Shown here: positions 49,799 to 64,000 of the stretch, piece after piece
Layout of the letters: each line of letters begins with the position of its first letter
How positions within the stretch are numbered: position 1 is the stretch's first letter
Source of the DNA: Candidatus Portnoybacteria bacterium
GTDB taxonomy: Bacteria; Patescibacteriota; Minisyncoccia; Portnoybacterales; GWB1-42-6
NCBI GenBank assembly: GCA_016208745.1
Contig: JACQXN010000020.1
Coordinates: 9,062-73,061 of the forward strand
Length of the DNA stretch: 64,000 bases
Direction: 5' to 3'
Notes under the pieces: model-generated
Seen by the model: only the letters and a program-made list of their open reading frames with translations
The model's database searches: none
What the model was told of the DNA's origin: nothing
Translations under genes and position numbers: made by a program

Positions 49799-50842
49799 AT
49801 GAGAATTTCTATTCTGATTCCTTGCCACAACGAAGAGCGGTCAATAGAAAGATGCGTCAAATCGTGTTTGGAGCAGACGAGAAAACCCGATGAGATTATC
49901 GTTGTGAACGACGGCAGCACCGATAAAACCGCCCAGATTCTGGCGGGTTTTGGCGACCAAATAAAAGTGGCTAATATTGAAAAGGCGACCGGCAATAAAA
50001 GCTATGCCCAGGAATTTGGGTTGCAATTTATAACCGGCGACATATTTATTGCCACAGACGGGGACACTTTTCTAGACAAAGATTTTGTCAAAACGATTGA
50101 GGAAGATTTTCTTGCCGAGCCCAAGCTGGCGGCAGTTGGTGGCTATGTCAGAAGTTTAAAGTATAATTGGTTGACCGCCTGTCGGGAAATGGATTATATC
50201 CTTGGGCAGGATTTATATAAAGTGGCCCAGGCAAGCATTGATTTCCTTTTTGTTATTCCCGGATGCGCCGGCGCTTTTAAGACGGATATTTTCAGACAAT
50301 ATATTAAATTTGATCACGACACCCTAACCGAAGATTTGGATTTTACATACAAGCTTCATCTTAATTATTTCAAGATTAAATATAACAAAAAGGCGATTTG
50401 CTATACGCAAGACCCCTTTACGCTTGGAGCCTATATTAATCAGATGAGGCGCTGGTTTGGCGGCGGCTGGCAGAATTTGATTAAGAACTTTCGGATTGCT
50501 AACCGGCCGGCCAACGCGCTTGAGCTTTCTTTAATGTATATTGAGGGGCTCATCTTTTCTTCCTGCCTCTTTATTTTCCCTTTGGTTAATATCCTCTTTT
50601 TTGAGCGGTTTATGAGCGCCTATTGCGTTTTTGTGCTTATGCTGGGTCTTTACTGCTCAATTAAAAGAAAAAGAATTGATCTTCTGCTTTTCTCCCCGCT
50701 TTATCTTGTTTTGGTTTTTATAAATTCATGGGTGTTTTTAGAGCAGTTTGTTAAAGAAGTTGTCTTGGGGCGAAAAAATCTGGATTGGTTTAAGCCGGAG
50801 AGATTTAAAAACGAGGAAATGAATCTAGCGCAGAAAATTTAA
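49799..50842 (+). CDS. Processive GT2 glycosyltransferase (PgaC/IcaA/NodC-like)
   Basis: NDGSTD, DGD, TED, QMRRW (D,D,D,QxxRW) and C-terminal TMs. Confidence 0.88.
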   Translation: MRISILIPCHNEERSIERCVKSCLEQTRKPDEIIVVNDGSTDKTAQILAGFGDQIKVANIEKATGNKSYAQEFGLQFITGDIFIATDGDTFLDKDFVKTIEEDFLAEPKLAAVGGYVRSLKYNWLTACREMDYILGQDLYKVAQASIDFLFVIPGCAGAFKTDIFRQYIKFDHDTLTEDLDFTYKLHLNYFKIKYNKKAICYTQDPFTLGAYINQMRRWFGGGWQNLIKNFRIANRPANALELSLMYIEGLIFSSCLFIFPLVNILFFERFMSAYCVFVLMLGLYCSIKRKRIDLLLFSPLYLVLVFINSWVFLEQFVKEVVLGRKNLDWFKPERFKNEEMNLAQKI

Positions 50843-50861
50843 TTTTAAAGGGCAAACTTAT

Positions 50862-51347
50862 ATGCTTCCAAACGGATTATCGCTTATCGTGCATTTACTG
50901 ATTTTATTTTTAGTCTTTCTTAAAAGAACGATTGATTTGGCTATTCAAAAATTAGGATGGTATATTTTAAGATTTAAAATAAGTTTCTGGTTTAGAAAAA
51001 AATTGATTGTTTTTTTAATTGGCCAGCCGGGGAATATATTGTCCAGAAAAATCCTTTCTTATGCGATAGTGCTGTTTGTTTTTTCCGCTATTTCTTCTTT
51101 GATGATAATTTCAATGTGGCCGCGCTTAAGCACAGATTCAAACATAGAGCTTGTTGGGAGCGTATTAAAAAATAATTTTGCGGTTGCTGATGAAAGGGCC
51201 GCGGAAGTCTTTATCAAAGATGATTTTGATGTGGAGTATATCAATGTTTTGCCTTCATCTGATGACATTTCTTATCCGGAGCAAGACGTTTTTGTAGCGC
51301 TCCTGCCGGTTTCTGAAGATATCAAAGAGCCGATTAATAATAATTAA
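50862..51347 (+). CDS. Hypothetical membrane protein
   Basis: Hydrophobic N-half, acidic C-half; in operon position. Confidence 0.5.
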   Translation: MLPNGLSLIVHLLILFLVFLKRTIDLAIQKLGWYILRFKISFWFRKKLIVFLIGQPGNILSRKILSYAIVLFVFSAISSLMIISMWPRLSTDSNIELVGSVLKNNFAVADERAAEVFIKDDFDVEYINVLPSSDDISYPEQDVFVALLPVSEDIKEPINNN

Positions 51348-51393
51348 ACCAACGCTCAAGCCCGGCGCTAGACGCTAATCAACTGACCAAAAA

Positions 51394-52749
51394 ATGAAAA
51401 AAATTTATTTAATTCCAATTTATATCCTCTGTGTAAGCCTAATCTTTTCGCCGCTTAATTTCTTGTTGGCGGCCGATAAAGTTGATTTGGCCGGATACGC
51501 AATGAGCCGTTTGAGCGGTCTGTCTTTTGGCTTGTTTAATCAAGACCAAAATCAGTCAGAAGAACTAATCTTGTTAGACGGGGATATCTCTGAAGAATTT
51601 TCCTTGCTTTCGCCCGGCGCGCCATTTGGCCCCAATCTTATTAAAAATCCCTCGCTGGAGACAGCCGGCCTTTTAAGCGGTTTGCCGGAGTTTTGGTCCC
51701 ACGGAAGTTGGGACAAAAATAATCCAGTTCCAAGCTACCCGGTTTCTGGATTTGACGAAGAAAGAGCGGTTAGGATAGATATTGATAAATACGTTGGCGG
51801 AGACAGCAAATGGTATTTTGAAGACGTGGAGATTGCCGCTGGCAAGCATTATCTTTTTTCGGATTCATTTAAGTCTACAATTCCCAGCGTTTTAACTGCC
51901 AGATTCCTTTTAGCCGATAATACTTATCGATATTTTGATGTTGCTAATTTGCCTGCTTCATTTATTTGGCAGACAGCCTCGCAAATGATAACCGCGCCTT
52001 ATAACGCAAAATCGCTGACAATTTTCCATTCAATAAGAGGTAATGGTTCGTTGACTACTGATAACTTTTCTTTAAGAGAAATACCGGTCAGCGGCGGATT
52101 TTCTCAAGGTTTTGTTTCTTTGGATTTTGATGATGGTTGGGCGCTTACCTATAAAAACGCTTTGCCGATTTTAAACAAAGCGGGTCTAAAAAGCACGCAG
52201 AGCATAATCAGCGGTAGCATAAAAGATTGGCATTATGTTAATAAATCTCAGATTTTAGATATGCAAAATTCCGGACACGAAATTGCTTCGCATACAAAAA
52301 CGCACGCAGACTTAACTCGATTTTCAGCGAGCCGGGTGAAAGATGAAGTAGCCGGCTCAAAGAAAGCTTTATTATCGCTTGGCGTGGAGGCAATCAATTC
52401 ATTTGTGTATGCTCACGGAAAATACAATAACCAAGCAGAGGAAGCCGTAAAGGATGCTGGCTTCATAAATGCAAGAACCATTGATATTGGTTACAATACA
52501 AAAACATCCAATCCATATTTATTGAAAAGTCAGGTAATCGCATTAAACACTAGTTTTGATGAAGTAAAATTCTGGATTGACAGAGCGATTGCCGATAAAA
52601 CTTGGGTGATTTTGGTTTTTCATCAGATAGATTATAGCGGTCAAACATATAGCGCTACCCCAGAAATGTTGCAGCAAATTGTTGATTATCTAGTTTTACA
52701 GAATGTTTCGGTTTTGACCAATTCGCAAGGCGCGGCATTGCTTGAATAG
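51394..52749 (+). CDS. Secreted CBM-like + CE4 polysaccharide deacetylase
   Basis: Signal peptide; NLIKNPSLE domain; FDDG, SHTKTH, LVFH. Confidence 0.9.
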   Translation: MKKIYLIPIYILCVSLIFSPLNFLLAADKVDLAGYAMSRLSGLSFGLFNQDQNQSEELILLDGDISEEFSLLSPGAPFGPNLIKNPSLETAGLLSGLPEFWSHGSWDKNNPVPSYPVSGFDEERAVRIDIDKYVGGDSKWYFEDVEIAAGKHYLFSDSFKSTIPSVLTARFLLADNTYRYFDVANLPASFIWQTASQMITAPYNAKSLTIFHSIRGNGSLTTDNFSLREIPVSGGFSQGFVSLDFDDGWALTYKNALPILNKAGLKSTQSIISGSIKDWHYVNKSQILDMQNSGHEIASHTKTHADLTRFSASRVKDEVAGSKKALLSLGVEAINSFVYAHGKYNNQAEEAVKDAGFINARTIDIGYNTKTSNPYLLKSQVIALNTSFDEVKFWIDRAIADKTWVILVFHQIDYSGQTYSATPEMLQQIVDYLVLQNVSVLTNSQGAALLE

Positions 52750-52779
52750 TTTTTGAATTGAATCATAGGCTCTGTTATT

Positions 52780-52849
52780 TGTCATTCCCGCGAAAGCGGG
52801 AATCCAGGCTCTTTTTTGAATCTAGATTCCCGCTTTCGCGGGAATGACA
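52780..52849. repeat. Family B palindrome (cleanest copy)
   Basis: TGTCATTCCCGCGAAAGCGGGAATCC...GATTCCCGCTTTCGCGGGAATGACA. Confidence 0.92.
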
Positions 52850-52923
52850 AGACTGAGTATTATGTAATTCAAGCAGGAAGTTTTTTAAAAACAAAATAAA
52901 ACAAAAACATAAGGAGGCAAAAG

Positions 52924-54162
52924 ATGAAAGCAAGATTGAACGGTGTTTTTTTGGTGGCTTGTGCGGTTTTTTTCTTATTAACCTTAACCAGCGCGAGTTT
53001 CGCGTATGAACTGCCAAAGATGGTCGGCATTACCTGTGATGACGGGCAAGCCGATTCTTTGGAAAGAATGCTGTCTGTCACGATCCCTCTTGGGCTCAAG
53101 GTTGACCTTTTTTTGGTTACTGATTTCCTTGATGAAGGGGATTGGTCTATTGACTGGGCCAGGGCGAAAGAGCTCCAAACTCTTTATCCCGGCCTAGTTA
53201 AAATCAATAGTCACTCAAGGACTCATCCCTACTTTACGTCGCTTACCAATGCGCGATTGATTGATGAGACGCGCGGCTCAAAGCTTCAGTTCTCGGCTCA
53301 CGGCATTAATACAGATGACATGGGGATCGCCACGCCGTATGGCGACTTCAACCTTAAGGTCTTGTCTTTTGTGGCAAGATATTATCCTTGGCATCGGGCG
53401 GCTTGGGATTATGATGGTGATGGCGTGATCAACAAATGGCCTTTAAATGATTGTCAGTTGGAGATCTTTGAGCCGACACCGAATATGCCGGGCGAAGAAG
53501 TGATTGCCCGGGTCCAAGAAGACATAGCGCAAGGTGGACTTCCATTGCTTTTATTCCACGAATTTACGCCGGCTGGCGTTGTGCCGGGAGATTGGCAATA
53601 TCCAATTGAGGAATTCAAAAAAATTGTAAATTGGATTGCCGCAAACAGTGACACGATTAAATCTGTCACGATTTCGGAGGCACTGCATCTAACCGACGCC
53701 CCAAATTTGGTGAAAAACTATTCTTTTACTAACCGGAATGTTAATGGTTGGGCGAAGAATTGGTCGCGGAGCGGCGCGGGAGTTACGATCAATACGGCTC
53801 ACCAGGGCAATTTTCCTGAATTTACAAACAGCTTGCGAATTGTCGGTGGTTCTGTGGAGCGCAAAGCCTGGAACGATCAGGTGCCAGTGGATGAGGGCTC
53901 CGAATACATTATCAAGATGTATCAGAGCTGCCAGAATTGGGTCGCGGGCGGTTGGTGCGTCTGGGTTGATGAATTTAACTTAGACGGATATTATATTGGC
54001 GGCCAACGGTTAGGAGGCAACTACTGGAACTTCGTTGGCTGGCGGTATTATCAATATCAGCCTTCACCCGGAACCGCCAAAGCTTCTATCCAACCTTATG
54101 TAGAGGCGGGCAGTCGGTTGACTCTGTTCGTTGATTCAGTGGAGATGAGGAAGCTGCCATAG
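52924..54162 (+). CDS. Secreted CE4 polysaccharide deacetylase + CBM-like domain
   Basis: Signal peptide; CDDG, SHSRTH, ATPYG, LLFH; NLVKNYSF domain. Confidence 0.88.
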   Translation: MKARLNGVFLVACAVFFLLTLTSASFAYELPKMVGITCDDGQADSLERMLSVTIPLGLKVDLFLVTDFLDEGDWSIDWARAKELQTLYPGLVKINSHSRTHPYFTSLTNARLIDETRGSKLQFSAHGINTDDMGIATPYGDFNLKVLSFVARYYPWHRAAWDYDGDGVINKWPLNDCQLEIFEPTPNMPGEEVIARVQEDIAQGGLPLLLFHEFTPAGVVPGDWQYPIEEFKKIVNWIAANSDTIKSVTISEALHLTDAPNLVKNYSFTNRNVNGWAKNWSRSGAGVTINTAHQGNFPEFTNSLRIVGGSVERKAWNDQVPVDEGSEYIIKMYQSCQNWVAGGWCVWVDEFNLDGYYIGGQRLGGNYWNFVGWRYYQYQPSPGTAKASIQPYVEAGSRLTLFVDSVEMRKLP

Positions 54163-54170
54163 ATAATTAT

Positions 54171-54293
54171 TTCCCCCTTTATAAAAGGGGGATTCAGGGG
54201 GATTTTTAAAATCCCTCCCAGCCTCCTTTTTTCAAGGGAGGAGTAAGAAAACAAATACACCCGACGCAAAATAAAGCGTCGGGTTTTTAATTT
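54171..54293. repeat. Family A repeat plus terminator (ACCCGACGC/GCGTCGGGT-T5)
   Basis: Same block recurs at 55635-55720. Confidence 0.85.
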
Positions 54294-54397
54294 TAGCAGC
54301 ACAAAAAACTTGACAACATTATTGTTGTGTGTTAGATTGGTTGATTCAAAGAGTGAGGAGAAATTCCTTAAAAACAAAACAAAAACGGAGGTAAAAA

Positions 54398-55621
54398 ATG
54401 GAAACAAGAAAGGTAGTAAGTATTTGGATGATTATTTTAGCGGTAACTTTTATGGTAACCGCGAATTCGGCCGCTTATGAGCCGCCGGCCAAGTGTACAA
54501 TCTTTTTTGATGATGGTCAGAGGTCAATTTATGACATCGCCTTGCCTATAATGGCGGCGAGAAACCTTAAGGCCGTAATTTGCCCTAGGGCCGATTGGAT
54601 GGGTTTGGGAGAAGGCTGGGTGATGAACTGGGAAGAGGTCTCGACTCTGAAGACGCAATATAAGTGGGAAGTTACCAGCCATGGAATAGACCATCCAGAT
54701 TTCACCACATTGTCAGACCCGGATCTGGAATGGCAGATGATAGGTTCCAAGGATGCATTTGCCGACCACAATATTATTGTTAGGGGCATCGCAACGCCTT
54801 TTGGTGCTTACAATGGCAAGGTTTTGTCGGCTATCGCCAGAAACTATTTTTGGCATCGCACAGCAGACGCAGGGGTGGATTCTTGGCCCTATAATGACTA
54901 TATGCTTAAGGTTATAGAGCCAAAAAGGGACACGCCGCCTGAAGATGTAATTACGCAACTTCAGGACGCCTTTGCTCAAGGCCAATGGCCTAAGCTTTTG
55001 TTTCACAATCTCGTGGATGGGGTGCCGTTGGATTATCAATACAACTCGGCGGACTTCGCCCAGATTATGGACTTTATCCAAGCAGAGAGAGACCGGGGAG
55101 CCGTTAAGGTTGTGACGGTTACGCAAGGTTTGAGGTTGCCTGCTGGCAACAACTTGGTGCCAAACAGCAGCTTTGAGAATTTAAAACCCAACGGTTGGCC
55201 AAAAAATTGGTGGCTGAATGATGGGGCTGATTCAAGCAAAGTCTTCTTGGACAACGCTAATCACGGTAATTTTCCAAAGCCGAAAAACTCCATCAAGATT
55301 ATTGGTGATGCTCTGCCGCAAGGCATCCAATCAGCCAAAATCGCAGTCAGCAGTAATTCTGAGTATATCGTCAAGATGTTTCAGAATGTTCAAGATCTTG
55401 TTGCTGGTGGTTGGAGCGTCCATGTAGACGAATTTGACTCATCTGGCGCTTATATCGGGACTCGGTGCCTTGGCAACAACTGGGATAATTTCTTTGACTG
55501 CCGGTATTATGAATATCAGCCATCTGTCAAAGCCGTGAAAACGGCTATCATAATTTCAACTTGGGAAAACAGCGAGTTGACGCTACGTGTTGACTCGGTT
55601 GAATTCCGGAGATTAAATTAG
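54398..55621 (+). CDS. Secreted CE4 deacetylase + CBM-like domain, paralog of 52924-54162
   Basis: FDDG, SHGIDH, GIATPFG, LLFH; shared HGNFP, VAGGW...VDEF, VDSVE. Confidence 0.88.
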   Translation: METRKVVSIWMIILAVTFMVTANSAAYEPPAKCTIFFDDGQRSIYDIALPIMAARNLKAVICPRADWMGLGEGWVMNWEEVSTLKTQYKWEVTSHGIDHPDFTTLSDPDLEWQMIGSKDAFADHNIIVRGIATPFGAYNGKVLSAIARNYFWHRTADAGVDSWPYNDYMLKVIEPKRDTPPEDVITQLQDAFAQGQWPKLLFHNLVDGVPLDYQYNSADFAQIMDFIQAERDRGAVKVVTVTQGLRLPAGNNLVPNSSFENLKPNGWPKNWWLNDGADSSKVFLDNANHGNFPKPKNSIKIIGDALPQGIQSAKIAVSSNSEYIVKMFQNVQDLVAGGWSVHVDEFDSSGAYIGTRCLGNNWDNFFDCRYYEYQPSVKAVKTAIIISTWENSELTLRVDSVEFRRLN

Positions 55622-55743
55622 CAAAAAGGGGAATAAATCCACCCCACCCCTCCTTTTTCAAAGGAGGGAGTAAAAAAACAAATATACCCGGCGCAAAGCA
55701 ATGCGTCGGGTTTTTAATTTGTCCGGCCTTTATTTTCAGGAAG

Positions 55744-55796
55744 TTATCCACAATAAACTTTTGACGTCTTGACAGCATTTTACTATTTGCTAAACT
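55744..55796 (+). promoter_or_regulatory. DnaA-box consensus plus sigma70 promoter
   Basis: TTATCCACA 55744-55752; TTGACA-16-TAAACT. Confidence 0.55.
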
Positions 55797-55867
55797 AATA
55801 TAACGCCTTAAAAAGGCGCTAAAAAACCATAGATTAAAATTAGAAAACAAAATTAGAATTTAGATTT

Positions 55868-56137
55868 AAACCACCTACGGAGGGTAGCGAGAATCGTAAT
55901 GCAAGAGCCCGATAAGCTCACACATTACATACTGATTGACTAGAAGGGTGGTTTTTTTATTTTCTCGTCAAAAATTTCAAGTGTTAACGCAGAAATTTTT
56001 GTAACGAGAAAATAACCCCGCATTTATTCTTACCAAAGGGCAAGAAGACCAGTAAACGAAGGCGCAGGTCTCAAGGCCGGAGCCGTTTCGCGCAATAATA
56101 CAGAAATAGATAAACTTGGCTGGAATAAGTGCGGGGT
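55868..56137 (+). ncRNA. Conserved structured leader, copy 1
   Basis: Three stems shared, with compensatory changes, with 62948-63202. Confidence 0.72.
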
Positions 56138-56321
56138 TGAAAACAGAATTTATTGTCCGCATACCCGCCGTCGCCAAGGCTTTGGCGGGCAGGCGCGGGA
56201 GATTCTTCTCCGTCCGCAAATGCGGACGGAGAAGAATGACAGAAGAAAGTTAATCCAAATTTTAACATCCGATTGTTAATCTGGCGCATAGGGGGCGAAG
56301 TTCTATAAATAATTTTTTTAT

Positions 56322-56394
56322 AAATCCCTCCCAACCTCCCCTAAAGGGGAGGAGTAAAAAATTCCCCTCCTTTAGGAGGGGTTAGGGGAGATTT
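56322..56394. repeat. Family A repeat
   Basis: TTCCCCTCCTTTAGGAGGGGTTAGGGGAGATTT identical at 61489-61521. Confidence 0.85.
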
Positions 56395-56548
56395 AGTAAA
56401 AGGTCGACATTGCCTGCTTTCCGCTTTTAGCGGTTTTCTGCCAAAAGCAGGGCAGTGAACTAGCACATTTTAAAAATAAAGGCAGAAAACAGATATTAAC
56501 GAATTGCGGATTAACGAATTTTAACGCGTTAGTTCGTTAATTCATAAA

Positions 56549-57412
56549 ATGATACAAAAATCTATGAAAAAAGTTTTCGTTACCTTAACAGTTTTATCGT
56601 TAATGGTATTGACGGCGGCTCCTGCTTTGGCTGGTCATCGTCCTTCAAGACACCAAATGCCAGCTAATGACAGCGATATCACAATTAATATTGATAATGA
56701 GGCGACTGTTACCAACATCGTTTCTGTCGGAGCTTACACCGGCGGCAATACCTCTAAAGGCGATGACGGCGGCGACGGCGGCGACAGCGGCGAAGCAGAA
56801 GTTGAAGGAGCTAAAGGCACTGCCACTTCCGGCGACGGCGGCGACGGCGGCGACGGCGGCAATGGCGGCACAATCACCTCTGGTGATGCAGATGCGAGCG
56901 CCTATATTGCTAACGTAGTTAATACCAATTTGACTTCAGTTGATGCTTGCGGTTGCGAAGAAGGAGAAGAGGAAGATGGCTGTGGATGTGAAGATCCTTG
57001 CGGCTGTCAGTCTCGCTGCGGCGGCTCTCAACAAGGGGATGACTGTGGTTGCATTGATGACATCAAAGTTGACATAGAAAACAAAAAGACTGATGTTAAC
57101 AACAATGCAGGAGTTATGGCCGACACAGGTTTAAATGAATCCAAAGGCGATGACGGCGGCAATGGCGGCGACAGCGGCGAAGCAGAAGTTGAAGACCAAG
57201 ACAAAGACAGAGACAACAGATGGCATCGCGGCGGCTGCAATACTTGCGGCAGTGATTCAGAAGACAGCGAATGCTGCCCTGAAGCCACTTCAGGTGATGC
57301 AGGCGATGGCGGCGACGGCGGCAATGGTGGTGAAATCACCAGCGGCGCAGCTGCGGCTACAGCCAAAGTATTTAATCTGGTTAACACCACTGTTACCAGA
57401 GTTCGCAGATAA
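56549..57412 (+). CDS. Secreted Gly/Asp/Cys-rich protein with two TGxN...TSGxA repeats
   Basis: Signal peptide (APALA), (GGD)n tracts, CGC clusters, internal DNA duplication 56756/57143; start may be ATG 56564. Confidence 0.8.
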   Translation: MIQKSMKKVFVTLTVLSLMVLTAAPALAGHRPSRHQMPANDSDITINIDNEATVTNIVSVGAYTGGNTSKGDDGGDGGDSGEAEVEGAKGTATSGDGGDGGDGGNGGTITSGDADASAYIANVVNTNLTSVDACGCEEGEEEDGCGCEDPCGCQSRCGGSQQGDDCGCIDDIKVDIENKKTDVNNNAGVMADTGLNESKGDDGGNGGDSGEAEVEDQDKDRDNRWHRGGCNTCGSDSEDSECCPEATSGDAGDGGDGGNGGEITSGAAAATAKVFNLVNTTVTRVRR

Positions 57413-57478
57413 CTATTTTTTGCGAAACGAGCAGGAGAAGCTTTCGGGCTTCTCCTCTCGGATAAGCTCTTAATTTAT

Positions 57479-57563
57479 TTCCCCCTTTTTAAAGGGGGAT
57501 AAAGGGGGATTTAAAAAGACAAATCTAAATCCACCCCTCCCCTCCTTTAAAAAGGAGGGGAGG
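57479..57563. repeat. Family A repeat
   Basis: TCCCCCTTT-TT-AAAGGGGGA...CCCTCCTTTAAAAAGGAGGGG. Confidence 0.85.
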
Positions 57564-57737
57564 AATATCGATTGATAGCTTATGCGAGGGAAAAATGCCA
57601 GAATTTCTAATTACTCCGCCCAAGGCGGATCCGCCTCTGGCGGATAATTCAATCCCAATGCCCAATGTCAAGATTTAAAAATTAGACATTTGGGAACTAA
57701 ATATTTTATTGGAAATTAGGAATTATTTAAGAAATTT

Positions 57738-58346
57738 ATGGAGGTAAAGACGAGAAAAATTTTAAAAGTTATTTTACTTTTTTCATTAGTTTTGCCTCTG
57801 TCAGCCCAAGCGGCGTTGTTTGACGATTTTGTTAGCGGGATTGAAGATTGGGTTTCTGAACAAACAGGCAGTCAAACAAATAGTTCGGGCAATGTCCAGA
57901 TAAAAAACGAAGTAAAAGTTGAAGCTTCAACCGGCGGAAATTCTGTTGGTTCAGGCGGGGAAATTAAACAGGGCGAACAAAAAACCGAAATTGAAATAAA
58001 AAACATTATCAACGGACAGGAAATAGAGCCGGTTAATATTAATTCTTCAAGCAGCAAGGCAAAAGTGGAAATAAAAATAGAGGCCAATGATGGAAAAATT
58101 GAAGTTGAAAGAGAAATTGAAGTTGATTCGGAAAAAAGCGAGCAGAATTACCAGATTAATGCGGATAATCAAAATTCCCAAGATGATGCAAGCTCGCAAG
58201 AGTCTGCTGGCGCAGGCACAGATAGCGGCGTAGAAACGGAAAAGGAAAATATATTGGAAAAAACCGCAACAACAACTTCGGATTTCTTTTCAGCGATTTT
58301 TGAAAGCATAAAATCTTTTTTTGAAAATATATTTAGTATTTTTTAG
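57738..58346 (+). CDS. Secreted protein with one TGGN repeat
   Basis: Signal peptide (AQA); NEVKVEASTGGNS...IKQGE; amphipathic C-terminus. Confidence 0.75.
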   Translation: MEVKTRKILKVILLFSLVLPLSAQAALFDDFVSGIEDWVSEQTGSQTNSSGNVQIKNEVKVEASTGGNSVGSGGEIKQGEQKTEIEIKNIINGQEIEPVNINSSSSKAKVEIKIEANDGKIEVEREIEVDSEKSEQNYQINADNQNSQDDASSQESAGAGTDSGVETEKENILEKTATTTSDFFSAIFESIKSFFENIFSIF

Positions 58347-58377
58347 ATTCACTGAATCATAAAGCGGGCATTTTTTG

Positions 58378-58474
58378 CCTCCCCTCCTCAGATGAGGAGG
58401 GGAATTAAAGGGGTGGTGGTGACCTTAATAATTCAACACCCCACCCTACCCCTCCCCTCATCTGAGGGGAGGGA
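58378..58474. repeat. Family A repeat
   Basis: CCCCTCCTCAGATGAGGAGGGG...CCCTCCCCTCATCTGAGGGGAGGG. Confidence 0.85.
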
Positions 58475-58544
58475 AGACGCCTATTTTATAATTCAATGTT
58501 AAGCCAATATTTTAATCTAACTCCGGAGGGAAGTTATATCGGTT

Positions 58545-61349
58545 ATGAAAGCCAAACAGAGCAGGAGGGGAGATAATTGTTTTTTAACTAATTTAACTCG
58601 GGGAAAACAGAAAAACTTTATTTTAATTCCCTTACTGGTTATCAGTTTGGTGGTTTTTAATTTTCCCGCCATATCGGTTTTAGCCGAAGAAGTCCCGACT
58701 GACGCGCCAGCAGACACAACTTTAAGCCAAGATGCGCCAGCGCCTGCAGAAACTCCTGCGCCAACGGAAAATCCTGCTCCGCCGGAAGATGTGGTTATTG
58801 ACACCGGGGACGCCAATGGCGGCATTGAGGTTGAAAACTCTGTTAACACCAATATCGCCCAGCTTGGCGATCCGGCAGAAAGCCAGACAGACTGGTCAGA
58901 GCTTGAAGGAGAAGTCCAAGGACAGGCTGATGAAGCCGCTCAAACAGAGGCTGAAGAAACCGGTGAAACTGAAACTCAAGAGACCGCAGAAACTTTAGGC
59001 GACAATCCTCCAGCCGAGCCAGAAGAAGAATTGGCTCAAGGCGTTGACAATAGCAATGACGAGGAAAATAATGACGGCCAAAACACACTCGATATTACAA
59101 ATGATAATCAGGCTGATGTTGGAAACGACGTTGTTGGAGTCGGCTCAACCGGCGACAATCAAGCAGAGGGCGAAGCTTGCGACGTTGATATTAATACCGG
59201 CGCTGTCAATTTATACACCTATTTAATAAATATCGTTAACACCAATATTTTTGCCTCTGATTTCTCCCAGTTTTTGTTAAATCTTTTTGAGGGTTTGCAA
59301 GGCGATATTGATTTATCCAGCGAAATTGCTTCTTCGGCAGAAGGATGCCTAGGCGATGATTGCATAGACAATATTAATATCACCAATAATAACAACGGCA
59401 CAACGACCAACGATGTTTTGCTTGACGGCTCAAGCGGGGGAAACACCGCGCAAAGCAATGGCGGATCGGCAACTATTAACACCGGCGATGTTAATGTGGT
59501 GGCCAATGTTTTAAATATCTTAAACTCCAATATCGTTGGCGCAAACTGGACTCAATTTATCATCAATGTTTTTGGCGATTGGATGGGCGATTTGGTTTTG
59601 CCCGGCAAGGACCAGATGCAGGATCAATTTGGCAATAGCGGCTCTGCCTGCTGCGGCGATTTGTCCATTACCAATTCAAATCAAGGCCAGATAATAAATG
59701 ATGTTAGCGTTATTTCAGACACCGGTTTAAACACAACGCAAGGCGATGGCGGCTCAATTAACACCGGCGACGCGCAAGCGGATGTTAATGTTTTCAATAT
59801 CGCCAATACCAATATAACCGGCAATAATTTCTTTTTGATGAAGGTTAATAATTTTGGCGACTGGAACGGCAGTATTTTCAGTCTGCCGCCCGGATTTTTC
59901 ATTAGCCAAGACGGAATGGGCTTTGAAATTATAAACGCTGGTTCAAGCAGCGGCGTGGGAATTTCTGGCAGCGACTTAAATATCACCAACAATAACGCCG
60001 GCGCGATTATAAACAGAGTAATCATCAATGCCTTTACCGGCGGAAACACCGCTCAATCATCAGGCGGCTCTGCTTCAATTAATACCGGCGATGCCCAAGC
60101 GATAGTCAATTTGATGAATATTATGAATACCAATATCGTGGGCAATAATTTCCTTTTGGGCATGGTTAATATTTTTGGCAACTGGCAGGGCAATTTGGCC
60201 TTTGGCCGGCCAGACAACTGGATTGGTTCCTCTGCCGCCACCCTGCCTGATCCGGTCAGCCCGGGCGGCGAAATTGCCTATAACCTGGCCTACACTAACA
60301 AAGGCAATGCCGATGCGAGCAATGTTTTGGTCAAAGCCGGCTTCAATAAGGGGATTGTGGAAATCTTAAATAGCGGCGGCGGCTTTATTGACGAAGCAGC
60401 CGGCGAAATTATCTGGAATGTTGGCGATTTATCAATCGGCGAAACCGGCGCAGTTTCCTATGCTGTCCAGGTTAAAGATGATGTGCAAAATGACGTAAAA
60501 ACAATTGATACCACTTCTTCCATTTCAAGCCTTGAGAGCGACAATAACAGCCAAGACAACACAGACACTCTTTCGGTGGCTCTTTATCGCGGCAGTTCTT
60601 TGGGCGCTTTGGTTGGCGGGCCAAACGAAACTTTGCCGAATATGAAATTAACTCAAGCCAACAATGCTTATGATGGCGCCTGGCAAGGTGGCAGCATTAG
60701 TTTCTCTACCAAGCTTTTTAACGATAGTTCGGGCTCTTCTTATGACACGATTCTTTACAATAACATCCGATCAGTTTCTTCAACCGATATTCTAGACACC
60801 CAGCAATGGAATTTGGGCAAAGTTTTTCCCAATGAAGAGATAACAATTGATTTTGCCATTGTGGTTGGCGAAAATTTGCCGCCGGGCGAGTATCTAAGCT
60901 TTACCCAGGCGGCTGGCAAAGATGCTTCTGGCAACGCCAGCTATTCAACTATTGCTTCAAGCGTATTTAAAGTTGTAGAAGCTCCGGATACTGAAAATGT
61001 CGCGTCAGAAGAGGCAGCCGAGCTGAATGAAGAAGAGAATTCACAAAACAATATTGTGTCGGACATAAAAGATGTGGTTCAGGAAATATTAGCGCCTCTT
61101 AGACCAAAAACCATTAGCGCTTCGGATGAAAATGGGCCAGCAGTTGTTCGCGAAGTTTCAGCTTCAAACGAACAAGGTGGCGTTTTAGGGGATTTGCAAG
61201 AAGAGTCAAATAACAGACGCAGCTTAAATCTTTTTTCAGCGATTGGGTCTTTGGGCTGGTGGGGCTGGCTGATTATATTGGCTATCTTGGCAGCATTCTT
61301 GATTCTTCTGTTTTTGACAAAGAAAAGGAAAAAGGAAGAATCTTATTAG
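58545..61349 (+). CDS. Large surface protein: four TGxN...TGDA repeats, DUF11-like domains, C-terminal TM anchor
   Basis: Signal region; Asn-rich repeats; PGGEIAYNLAYTNKGNADA; WWGWLIIL...KKRKK tail. Confidence 0.82.
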   Translation: MKAKQSRRGDNCFLTNLTRGKQKNFILIPLLVISLVVFNFPAISVLAEEVPTDAPADTTLSQDAPAPAETPAPTENPAPPEDVVIDTGDANGGIEVENSVNTNIAQLGDPAESQTDWSELEGEVQGQADEAAQTEAEETGETETQETAETLGDNPPAEPEEELAQGVDNSNDEENNDGQNTLDITNDNQADVGNDVVGVGSTGDNQAEGEACDVDINTGAVNLYTYLINIVNTNIFASDFSQFLLNLFEGLQGDIDLSSEIASSAEGCLGDDCIDNINITNNNNGTTTNDVLLDGSSGGNTAQSNGGSATINTGDVNVVANVLNILNSNIVGANWTQFIINVFGDWMGDLVLPGKDQMQDQFGNSGSACCGDLSITNSNQGQIINDVSVISDTGLNTTQGDGGSINTGDAQADVNVFNIANTNITGNNFFLMKVNNFGDWNGSIFSLPPGFFISQDGMGFEIINAGSSSGVGISGSDLNITNNNAGAIINRVIINAFTGGNTAQSSGGSASINTGDAQAIVNLMNIMNTNIVGNNFLLGMVNIFGNWQGNLAFGRPDNWIGSSAATLPDPVSPGGEIAYNLAYTNKGNADASNVLVKAGFNKGIVEILNSGGGFIDEAAGEIIWNVGDLSIGETGAVSYAVQVKDDVQNDVKTIDTTSSISSLESDNNSQDNTDTLSVALYRGSSLGALVGGPNETLPNMKLTQANNAYDGAWQGGSISFSTKLFNDSSGSSYDTILYNNIRSVSSTDILDTQQWNLGKVFPNEEITIDFAIVVGENLPPGEYLSFTQAAGKDASGNASYSTIASSVFKVVEAPDTENVASEEAAELNEEENSQNNIVSDIKDVVQEILAPLRPKTISASDENGPAVVREVSASNEQGGVLGDLQEESNNRRSLNLFSAIGSLGWWGWLIILAILAAFLILLFLTKKRKKEESY

Positions 61350-61392: not shown

Positions 61393-61521
61393 AAATCCTC
61401 CCTCGCCTCGCTTAAGCTCCGGCGAAGCGGGCCAGCCCTCCCCCGTATCAAGTACGGGGCAAGCTCTAAAGGGAGGGAGCAGGGATTATTCCCCTCCTTT
61501 AGGAGGGGTTAGGGGAGATTT
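61393..61521. repeat. Family A repeat with two nested GC palindromes
   Basis: TCGCC..GGCGA and CCCCGTA/TACGGGG interrupt the AAATCCTCCC..CCCTC..AAAGGGAGGG frame. Confidence 0.82.
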
Positions 61522-61691
61522 AGATTGGTGTAAGAGTTAATTAATTTCAGGAACCATCGCAGATTACATTATTATTCATTAAACCCTAGGCTATTATTTG
61601 TTTGACAGGATTCCTTGAGGCGGTAAAATGATAAATAAACATCGCTTTTTTTGCAGCGGGCGAGTTTTAATAATTATTAAAACTATAAAAA

Positions 61692-62504
61692 ATGAATAAA
61701 AAATCGCTTCTCAATAATTTAATTGTTTTGCTGGCGGCCTTTGCTTTGCTTTTAAGCCCGGTTTTGGCTAAAAACGACAATGCCATAGAAGTTGATATTC
61801 CAGACCAAGATGGGATATATGACGTGCCCGGCCATCAGGAACTTAAACTAAGAGTTATTGTCCACAAAGAGAAACCGGCAAAAACCGATCCAGAGGCTTT
61901 GCAATCTTTTGTCTGCACTCTCTCCGATCCTGATTCTCTGTCATTTATTGGCGCAACCGGCTGGTATTTGGCAACAACAACACCTTTCGTTTATACCTTA
62001 AATCCAAGCAGTGTGCCCGCTTCCATTGGCGCCAGCAACTTGCCAAAAATAGCGGAAAATTCATTTAAGGTTTGGACGGATGCGATTGGCAATAAGGTGA
62101 CTATTTCAAGAAACCCGATAAACACTTTAATCGCCAAAAAAGCTCTTGATGGCAAAAATATTATTGCCTGGAACAGATTGTCAAAATCAATTTTAGGCGT
62201 TACCTACACTTGGTATTACACGAGCACCGGTTTAGTAGCGGAGATTGATACCATAATGAATAAAAGCGTTGCTTGGAGCTGGTCTAATCCGACAACCTGG
62301 CCCCTGCCCTATATTTGCGCTGATAAATATTCTTATGACGCGCAGAATATCCTAACTCATGAAATCGGCCATTGGTTTGGCCTGATTGATAGATATGAGA
62401 CTGATTATGCCGCAAACACAATGTATGGTTATGGTTCAAAAATGGAAACAAAGAAGGATACTCTAACTGAAGGCGATATTTTGGGGGTAGAGGCGATTTA
62501 TTAA
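61692..62504 (+). CDS. Secreted matrixin (M10-like) metallopeptidase
   Basis: Signal peptide; HEIGHWFGL zinc motif; TMY Met-turn; promoter TTGACA-16-TAAAAT (61602-61629). Confidence 0.88.
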   Translation: MNKKSLLNNLIVLLAAFALLLSPVLAKNDNAIEVDIPDQDGIYDVPGHQELKLRVIVHKEKPAKTDPEALQSFVCTLSDPDSLSFIGATGWYLATTTPFVYTLNPSSVPASIGASNLPKIAENSFKVWTDAIGNKVTISRNPINTLIAKKALDGKNIIAWNRLSKSILGVTYTWYYTSTGLVAEIDTIMNKSVAWSWSNPTTWPLPYICADKYSYDAQNILTHEIGHWFGLIDRYETDYAANTMYGYGSKMETKKDTLTEGDILGVEAIY

Positions 62505-63409: not shown

Positions 63410-64000
63410 ATGAAGAAGATTATATTAAGTTTAAGCATTATCGCGGCGGCCGCGGCAGTGGTCATCGGCGTCACGACTTCATTTTTTTCCGACACCGAAA
63501 CTTCCAGCGGCAACACCTTTACCGCTGGCGACATTGATCTCCAGATTGATAATGAAAGTTATGTGACTAATGAAGACGGAATATTGGTTGCGAGCCCTAA
63601 TACGAGCTGGGATTTAGCAGATCTTACAATAGAAAAATTTTTTGATTTTGATGATCTAAAACCCGGCGACATTGGCGAGGATACAATTTCAATTCATATT
63701 GGCTCAAACGACGCATGGGTTTGCGCTGCGGCAAGAATTACCGCAGACGAAGATGTTACGTGTACTGAGCCAGAAGGCGATGACGATTCAAATTGCGCCG
63801 AGTCGGGCGCGGGGCTTGGAGAGTTAGATGAAGAAATAAATTTTGCATTTTGGGTAGACGATGGTGATAACGTGCTTGAGGATAATGAGGTTAGCTCTAT
63901 TTTTCTCGAAGGACCATTAAGCGGAATTGGCGCGCAGGGGCAAATTACCTTGGCGGATTTCGATGAATCGATTCTTCCAGACAAAGGTCCTATTCCGGGC
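63410..64000 (+). CDS. TasA/CalY-like protein with SipW-class signal peptide, 3'-truncated by window edge (absent from ORF track)
   Basis: MKKIILSLSIIAAAAAVVIGVTTSFFSDTETSSGNTFTAGDIDL...LKPGD; open to the window end. Confidence 0.88.
   Translation, partial: MKKIILSLSIIAAAAAVVIGVTTSFFSDTETSSGNTFTAGDIDLQIDNESYVTNEDGILVASPNTSWDLADLTIEKFFDFDDLKPGDIGEDTISIHIGSNDAWVCAAARITADEDVTCTEPEGDDDSNCAESGAGLGELDEEINFAFWVDDGDNVLEDNEVSSIFLEGPLSGIGAQGQITLADFDESILPDKGPIPG

Follow-up and report, generated by a model that had tools for sequence, protein, structure and literature searches.

A conserved unnamed repeat shared by three adjacent genes of a Portnoybacteria genome, and the surface fibre they may build

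The window analysed is a stretch of 64,000 nucleotides from a Candidatus Portnoybacteria genome (contig JACQXN010000020.1; genome 859 kb, 97.8% complete). Three adjacent open reading frames (ORFs) lie on its plus strand where a first-pass annotation of this DNA had placed them, and are called here A (the gene at 56549), B (57738) and C (58545). They share a two-strand repeat of ~54 residues that is real, conserved and unnamed. The operon probably builds a cross-beta surface fibre of A, similar to curli and Fap, with C as its membrane-anchored partner; the probability of this reading is put at about 0.6.

In the proposed system the three proteins would be exported by Sec. Two beta-arch rungs would make up A, and its copies would stack head to tail in a parallel, in-register manner. 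Each repeat would be one rung: a strand of ~20 residues would bend at a TGxN kink into a loop, and after an ITG kink the return strand would run back, zipped to the first by inward Ala, Val and Ile and by Asn ladders. Because A has only two rungs and no cap, both of its edges would be open. Its GGx loops would form polyglycine-II helices, interleaving between subunits beside the cross-beta spine. C would carry the same rung on an immunoglobulin-like (Ig-like) stalk and a membrane helix, and may tether or template the A fibre; B, where present, might at a guess be a cap, a starter or a membrane-surface adaptor. The lifestyle of these bacteria and the neighbouring genes suggest that the fibre would probably serve to attach them to a host cell or matrix.

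The shared repeat and its predicted fold

The repeat was detected with a profile of 341 repeats of other genomes (loci L011–L049), the rows of which had been placed with an initial profile for which C was the seed. It finds four full repeats in C (32.7–36.2 bits) together with a lone N-terminal second strand (residues 82–104, 15.1 bits), and one repeat in B (14.7 bits). A scores as four half-repeats (12.6–22.9 bits), because Gly-rich loops split its repeats. The best domain among 900 shuffles of the three proteins reaches 5.3 bits, below all the real matches, and a profile–profile comparison relates the A family to the repeats of C with a probability of 95% (E = 3.6e-8). These results confirm the earlier claim of an unnamed repeat common to the three genes, with two copies in A, one in B and 4.5 in C. 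The suggested length of ~50 residues holds for the core, and the full rung in C is ~100 residues.

Among six-frame ORFs of the genome the repeat is found in no gene besides A, B and C. The Pfam search proposed in the first-pass annotation was run together with NCBIfam, and neither places a family over the repeat in A, B, C, seven repeat proteins of other genomes or 76 A-family members; a repeat profile of 134 rows finds no PDB sequence at E ≤ 10. Names given to homologues are either hypothetical or derived from DUF11 or peptidoglycan-binding parts, and literature searches, supplements aside, brought up no description of the family.

Covariation was calculated on 1152 repeats (effective number 1016). 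Values of i+j between 62 and 66 are found for the seven best pairs and for 19 of the top 35, mostly on one face, led by A11–V52 (z = 10.5), A21–A42, I13–V52, N7–N55, N15–N50 and V17–V48. Inward Asn residues are near-invariant at repeat positions 9, 15, 26, 50 and 53. Together with two structure predictors, this points to a long beta-arch in which Asn and small hydrophobic residues face inward; the alternating hydrophobic/Asn pattern, taken earlier as a sign of long beta-strands, fits a predicted beta-arch with Asn ladders.

AlphaFold2 gives a repeating strand pattern for residues 79–563 of C (120 sequences), with a predicted local distance difference test (pLDDT) of 83.5 and a predicted template-modelling score (pTM) of 0.80. 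The Atlas model of C aligns to a distant cluster with a template-modelling score (TM) of 0.86 over 390 residues. No significant fold match was found for the models; the weak matches are mostly parallel beta-solenoids and include CsgA, and in Foldseek FapC is the top, non-significant row for both models (E = 0.28 and 0.09, TM about 0.1). A closed domain of a known family, raised earlier as the contrary outcome, was looked for by sequence and by fold, and none was found.

Stacking of A and the layout of the three proteins

Three copies of A (residues 38–287) were modelled with ESMFold2 from a 76-row alignment. The score is 0.66, compared with 0.00 for the best of three controls; at least 82% of contacts are common to the runs, and the partner pLDDT is at least 69. 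In a calibration on two copies with other alignments, which holds roughly here, 20 of 30 solved homo-pairs attained this mark, as did 1 of 23 single chains. In all 25 of the top-ranked contact pairs a residue in rung 2 of one copy meets one in rung 1 of the adjacent copy, offset by 127–130 or 153–155, which is the register of the repeats (N185 on N56, V278 on V124). The contacts are parallel, in register and head to tail, and the modelled stack is therefore open-ended. Within loop residues 89–109 and 198–212, contacts with the adjacent copy recur about every three positions, which is the polyglycine-II helical period, and the GGx tracts are predicted to form an inter-subunit polyglycine-II bundle. 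At the level of a model, A thus self-associates as the first-pass annotation expected, and this supports rather than shows its polymerization.

Gene A (56549..57412, plus strand) encodes 287 residues and is the predicted major fibre subunit. After a signal-like N-terminus (best 13-residue hydropathy 2.65), rung 1 (56675..56938) comprises strand 1 at residues 43–69, a Gly-rich loop at 70–108 and strand 2 at 109–130. Rung 2 (57059..57409), assigned like rung 1 from the profile and models, comprises strand 1 at 171–198, a Gly loop with an insert at 199–262 and strand 2 at 263–287. There is no anchor, and the last strand is the C-terminus (..LVNTTVTRVRR). The rungs are joined by a Cys-rich acidic linker with CGC motifs (56939..57049), of low pLDDT in the A monomer model; the protein contains 13 Cys and has a net charge of −33. 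The GGx runs of rung 1 (56756..56872) are modelled as polyglycine-II helices, and a second GGx set (57143–57334) lies around a variable Cys/charged insert. The loops had been described as (GGD)n tracts; they are Gly-rich, but are built as paired GGx runs on either side of a variable insert.

Within the A family (n = 76), Gly loops occur in 61 members, a CxC/CxxC motif in 57 and a TR-type end in 58. Small genes that stop on or just past the last strand account for 42 of 107 repeat ORFs. Natural homologues of 143–171 residues lack the loops (L022:9016-9444 and L055:5710-6222), and some loci hold two or three tandem A paralogues. A-type two-rung modules are also fused behind folded domains (L070:2179-4539, P0016, P0021 and P0023), one of which resembles a von Willebrand A domain by eye; these are candidates for display of cargo on the fibre.

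Gene C (58545..61349, plus strand; 934 residues) encodes the predicted membrane-anchored paralogue. An N-terminal hydrophobic stretch (best 13-residue hydropathy 3.21) precedes the orphan second strand, a half rung (58788..58862; model pLDDT about 90), which is followed by a disordered acidic linker. A regular expression finds the orphan strand in 47 of 72 C homologues, its presence not being linked to that of B (Fisher p = 0.45). Four rungs of ~100 residues follow (59082..60203, from the profile and the AlphaFold2 model). Their shared cores (59082-59255, 59367-59540, 59655-59822 and 59970-60143) are each succeeded by an extra hydrophobic lobe of FIINVFGDWxG type that A lacks, hence the rung spacing of 96–104 residues. 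The Ig-like region (60222..60980, approximate limits) gives a DUF7927 match at residues 569–654 of 24 bits, below the cut-off of 31. DUF11 or DUF7507 occurs in homologues, DUF11 in most of them, and Ig-like and peptidoglycan-binding domains are found among them. A C-terminal transmembrane helix (61254..61322, best 13-residue hydropathy 2.82) is followed by a basic tail, KKRKK. The membrane anchor ascribed to C earlier corresponds to this hydrophobic stretch, and its Ig-like domains to the below-cut-off match. In loci L074, L082 and L095 very large anchored members of 1746–2339 residues have the repeat block far from the N-terminus, with two small subunit genes on the 5′ side.

Gene B (57738..58346, plus strand; 202 residues), the accessory gene, contains one truncated repeat at residues ~48–95, with a shortened first strand and a deviant second strand. 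This is followed by a beta-rich segment, an acidic linker and an amphipathic Phe-rich C-terminal tail (58284-58343). The best 13-residue hydropathy of its N-terminal stretch is 2.56. Signal peptides had been assigned to all three proteins; each has a signal-like hydrophobic N-terminal stretch, as judged by hydropathy.

Gene order in relatives and alternative explanations

The repeat occurs in 58 of 401 sampled Patescibacteria genomes with the 134-row profile and in 49 with a four-row profile, the present genome included in both counts; of 40 close relatives, 1 gave a clear match across the repeat region. The family is also placed in Patescibacteria by look-alike clusters and named homologues; it is likely restricted to this phylum, a conclusion that has been lightly tested.

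Gene order was examined in 120 loci, comprising 40 regions around matches, 79 loci around C homologues (from the best 80 of 178 stretches) and the present one; the presence of the repeat was the basis for choosing these loci, and related loci do not count as independent. A large multi-repeat gene is present in 118. In 100 of these an anchorless multi-rung gene lies at most 2.5 kb upstream on the same strand; nine are cut by a contig end and nine have some other arrangement. This small-then-large order is kept in both of two sequence classes. In the class of the window the order is A, optional B, C. Of 80 loci, 67 have an A-type gene 5′ of C and 44 have an ORF separating the two; 46 such ORFs were found, of which five (extra A-type paralogues or a fusion) were left out and 41 B-like ORFs kept. 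Members of the other class have an additional strand at the N-terminal side of the rung, and their small subunit has 2–4 rungs without Gly loops. The third gene there, in place of B, encodes a small membrane-anchored paralogue; 9 of 15 of these carry an LPxTG-like motif. Of the 120 loci, 19 contain sortases, and LPxTG-like motifs occur on anchored paralogues of relatives; the present genome has no sortase. The three-gene synteny sought across genomes of the candidate phyla radiation (CPR) is thus conserved as the small-then-large order, and the form with B is one variant of it. Distances of A and C correlate (Mantel r = 0.57; best of 999 shuffles 0.21), which is weak support because of the kinship between loci.

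A gene of the DUF4352 family adjoins the repeat operon in nine loci of the other class (L012, L015, L016, L019, L024, L026, L030, L032 and L033), and two unnamed families flank it in nine and seven further loci. All three are possible lineage-specific assembly factors.

A number of points weigh against a fibre of A joined to C. The A monomer model is poor (pLDDT 54, pTM 0.35), and covariation between repeats gave no separation of neighbours (n+1) from next-neighbours (n+2). AlphaFold2 gives confident but unrealistic solenoids for perfect repeats, as part of one report describes (PMC11795689); the repeats of A, B and C are imperfect, unlike these, and covariation and ESMFold2 are separate methods, yet all three draw on overlapping alignments. 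The stacking test carries the two-copy calibration noted above, and open-edged beta-solenoids in general may tend to stack in such models. With the net charge of A, in-register stacking without cations would be opposed. C starts with a lone second strand that has no obvious complement in the complete last rung of A, and the neighbourhoods examined show no conserved chaperone, anti-aggregation factor or export channel.

The best surviving alternative, although improbable, is that A polymerizes without C, which would act separately as a cell-surface adhesin or be a short solenoid, capped and outside the fibre, the genes lying together through shared ancestry and regulation. The lobe on the rungs of C that A lacks, the unmatched orphan strand and the adhesin-like Ig-like and peptidoglycan-binding domains of C homologues would fit this, but A and C have a common register of the rung core, their order is kept in 100 of 118 loci across both classes, and their distances correlate, if weakly.

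Marginally less probable are finite hetero-oligomers or a wall-bound layer, in which a few copies of A and B complete and cap the C solenoid. The product would be a stalked adhesin or a coat in two dimensions rather than a long fibre. The half rung of C and truncated rung of B do resemble end pieces, several relatives add small LPxTG-bearing paralogues and sortases, and the charge of A disfavours long stacks; however, the edges of A are mutually compatible in the trimer model, as for an open-ended polymer, and tandem A paralogues are expected of variable fibre subunits, though they are also compatible with finite assemblies.

Least likely is that solenoid and stacking are predictor artefacts, and that antiparallel beta-hairpins, or secreted low-complexity segments mostly without order, make up the repeats. 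In favour of this are the low-confidence A monomer, the documented AlphaFold2 bias, the i+j diagonal that a hairpin would also give and the lack of a significant fold match; against it are strict conservation of Asn and small hydrophobics on one face, one-face covariation, a second predictor with consistent contacts, and the Atlas alignment.

Related fibre systems and the surrounding locus

The proposed anchored fibre of A would work like curli and Fap and is a member of neither. The parallel drawn in the first-pass annotation is one of predicted fold class and operon logic, with no detectable relation in sequence.

CsgA forms head-to-tail stacks of beta-arch repeats bearing Asn/Gln ladders, and in the sections of PMC10192328 that describe it curli (CsgA/CsgB; PF07012; PDB 8ENQ and 8C50) resembles the A and C models in beta-arch rungs, alternating inward hydrophobics, Asn ladders and head-to-tail parallel stacking, as well as in the half repeats at the ends of some members, as in the A/B/C family. 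The curlin repeat, by contrast, is about 23 residues long with a QX10Q kernel, compared with ~54 in A and C. Curlin PF07012 has no match in A, C, the 76 A-family members or the present genome (an Escherichia coli control matches), and CsgG PF03783 has none in this genome at its 97.8% completeness (the control matches in 4 of 14).

FapC has three imperfect repeats of one layer each with variable linkers, as part of PMC12392863 describes (three repeats also in PMC12822426). Fap (FapC/FapB; PDB 9U4U and 9NQD) is like the system predicted for A and C in its small secreted proteins, few long imperfect Asn-rich repeats, single cross-beta layer per repeat, variable linkers and co-encoded paralogues (PMC12392863). 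The repeat number differs (three in FapC, two in A and 4.5 in C), and FapC gives no sequence match at E ≤ 10 though its chains are in the PDB set searched. Fap fibres also have a Greek-key cross-section; in that respect the models yield FapC as the leading weak Foldseek row, at a TM of about 0.1. Where Fap has a fapABCDEF operon with FapD, FapE and FapF, this locus shows three repeat genes of one family, with GT2, deacetylase, metalloprotease and SipW-cognate genes as scanned neighbours; no Fap-profile search was made. According to a 2026 preprint (10.64898/2026.10.01.755530), the nucleator role of FapB had been in large part an inferred one, which is a reason for caution over a similar role for C.

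For the GGx loops of A the near systems are polyglycine-II and polyproline-II (PPII) helical bundles, as in a springtail antifreeze protein (7JJV) and phage S16 gp38 (6F45). The Pam pili of CPR bacteria consist of Ig-like two-domain pilins joined by donor-strand exchange with PamC/PamD chaperones. As far as part of PMC13278184 describes them, they share with A and C a CPR-specific operon, secreted filament subunits and a base protein membrane-anchored at its C-terminus, but are chaperone-assembled Ig-fold filaments with no repeat solenoid. A was rejected as a Pam pilin, having no Ig domain and being modelled as repeat strands and PPII helices; a sortase-assembled pilus was rejected here, the genome having no sortase and A no anchor.

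The filament systems found described for Patescibacteria are type IV pili and Ig-fold Pam pili (PMC13278184, in part). These bacteria depend on host-cell attachment, and the fibre, if real, would add an attachment or matrix system in about one-seventh of sampled genomes (58/401). Cryo-electron microscopy groups would gain a sequence family with which to compare filaments not yet assigned, and solenoid functional amyloids would no longer be limited to curli and Fap. A cross-beta spine combined with an inter-subunit polyglycine-II bundle would also be a new fibre architecture. A bolder and tentative proposal, given slightly less than even odds, is a third large bacterial family of beta-solenoid functional amyloids, unrelated in sequence to curli or Fap and so far confined to Patescibacteria. 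Its rung would be the widest yet, and it would grow from an integral-membrane (or sortase-anchored) template with neither channel nor chaperone. One branch would add a continuous polyglycine-II bundle running between subunits, giving a fibre for holding hosts that is a hybrid of cross-beta and PPII.

Directly 5′ of A (49799-55621) lie one GT2 glycosyltransferase and three polysaccharide deacetylase genes, which with the fibre genes look like a surface or matrix island. Right after C is a gene for a secreted matrixin-like zinc metalloprotease (61692-62504), with homologues near the repeat operon in L031 and L035; subtilases lie near it in nine other loci. A SipW-cognate (TasA/camelysin-like) gene follows at 63410-64000 and beyond, the first of four related genes on the contig, and after it comes a gene clustering with signal-peptidase-like ORFs. 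The SipW-cognate genes are predicted to form a second fibre system beside A, B and C; TasA-like genes are also present in L013, L021, L031, L033, L090, L097, L101 and L102.

The ~930 bases 5′ of A (55622-56548) hold no convincing gene and no riboswitch was found in them; there are several hairpins and a TTGACA-type promoter-like site at 55769. Palindromes resembling repetitive extragenic palindromic (REP) elements, of the CCCCTCC...GGAGGGG type and matching no Rfam family, lie between the genes at 55634-55673, 56330-56398, 57479-57567, 58378-58476 and 61488-61523. An identical 36-nucleotide palindrome copy is present at 56361 and 61488.

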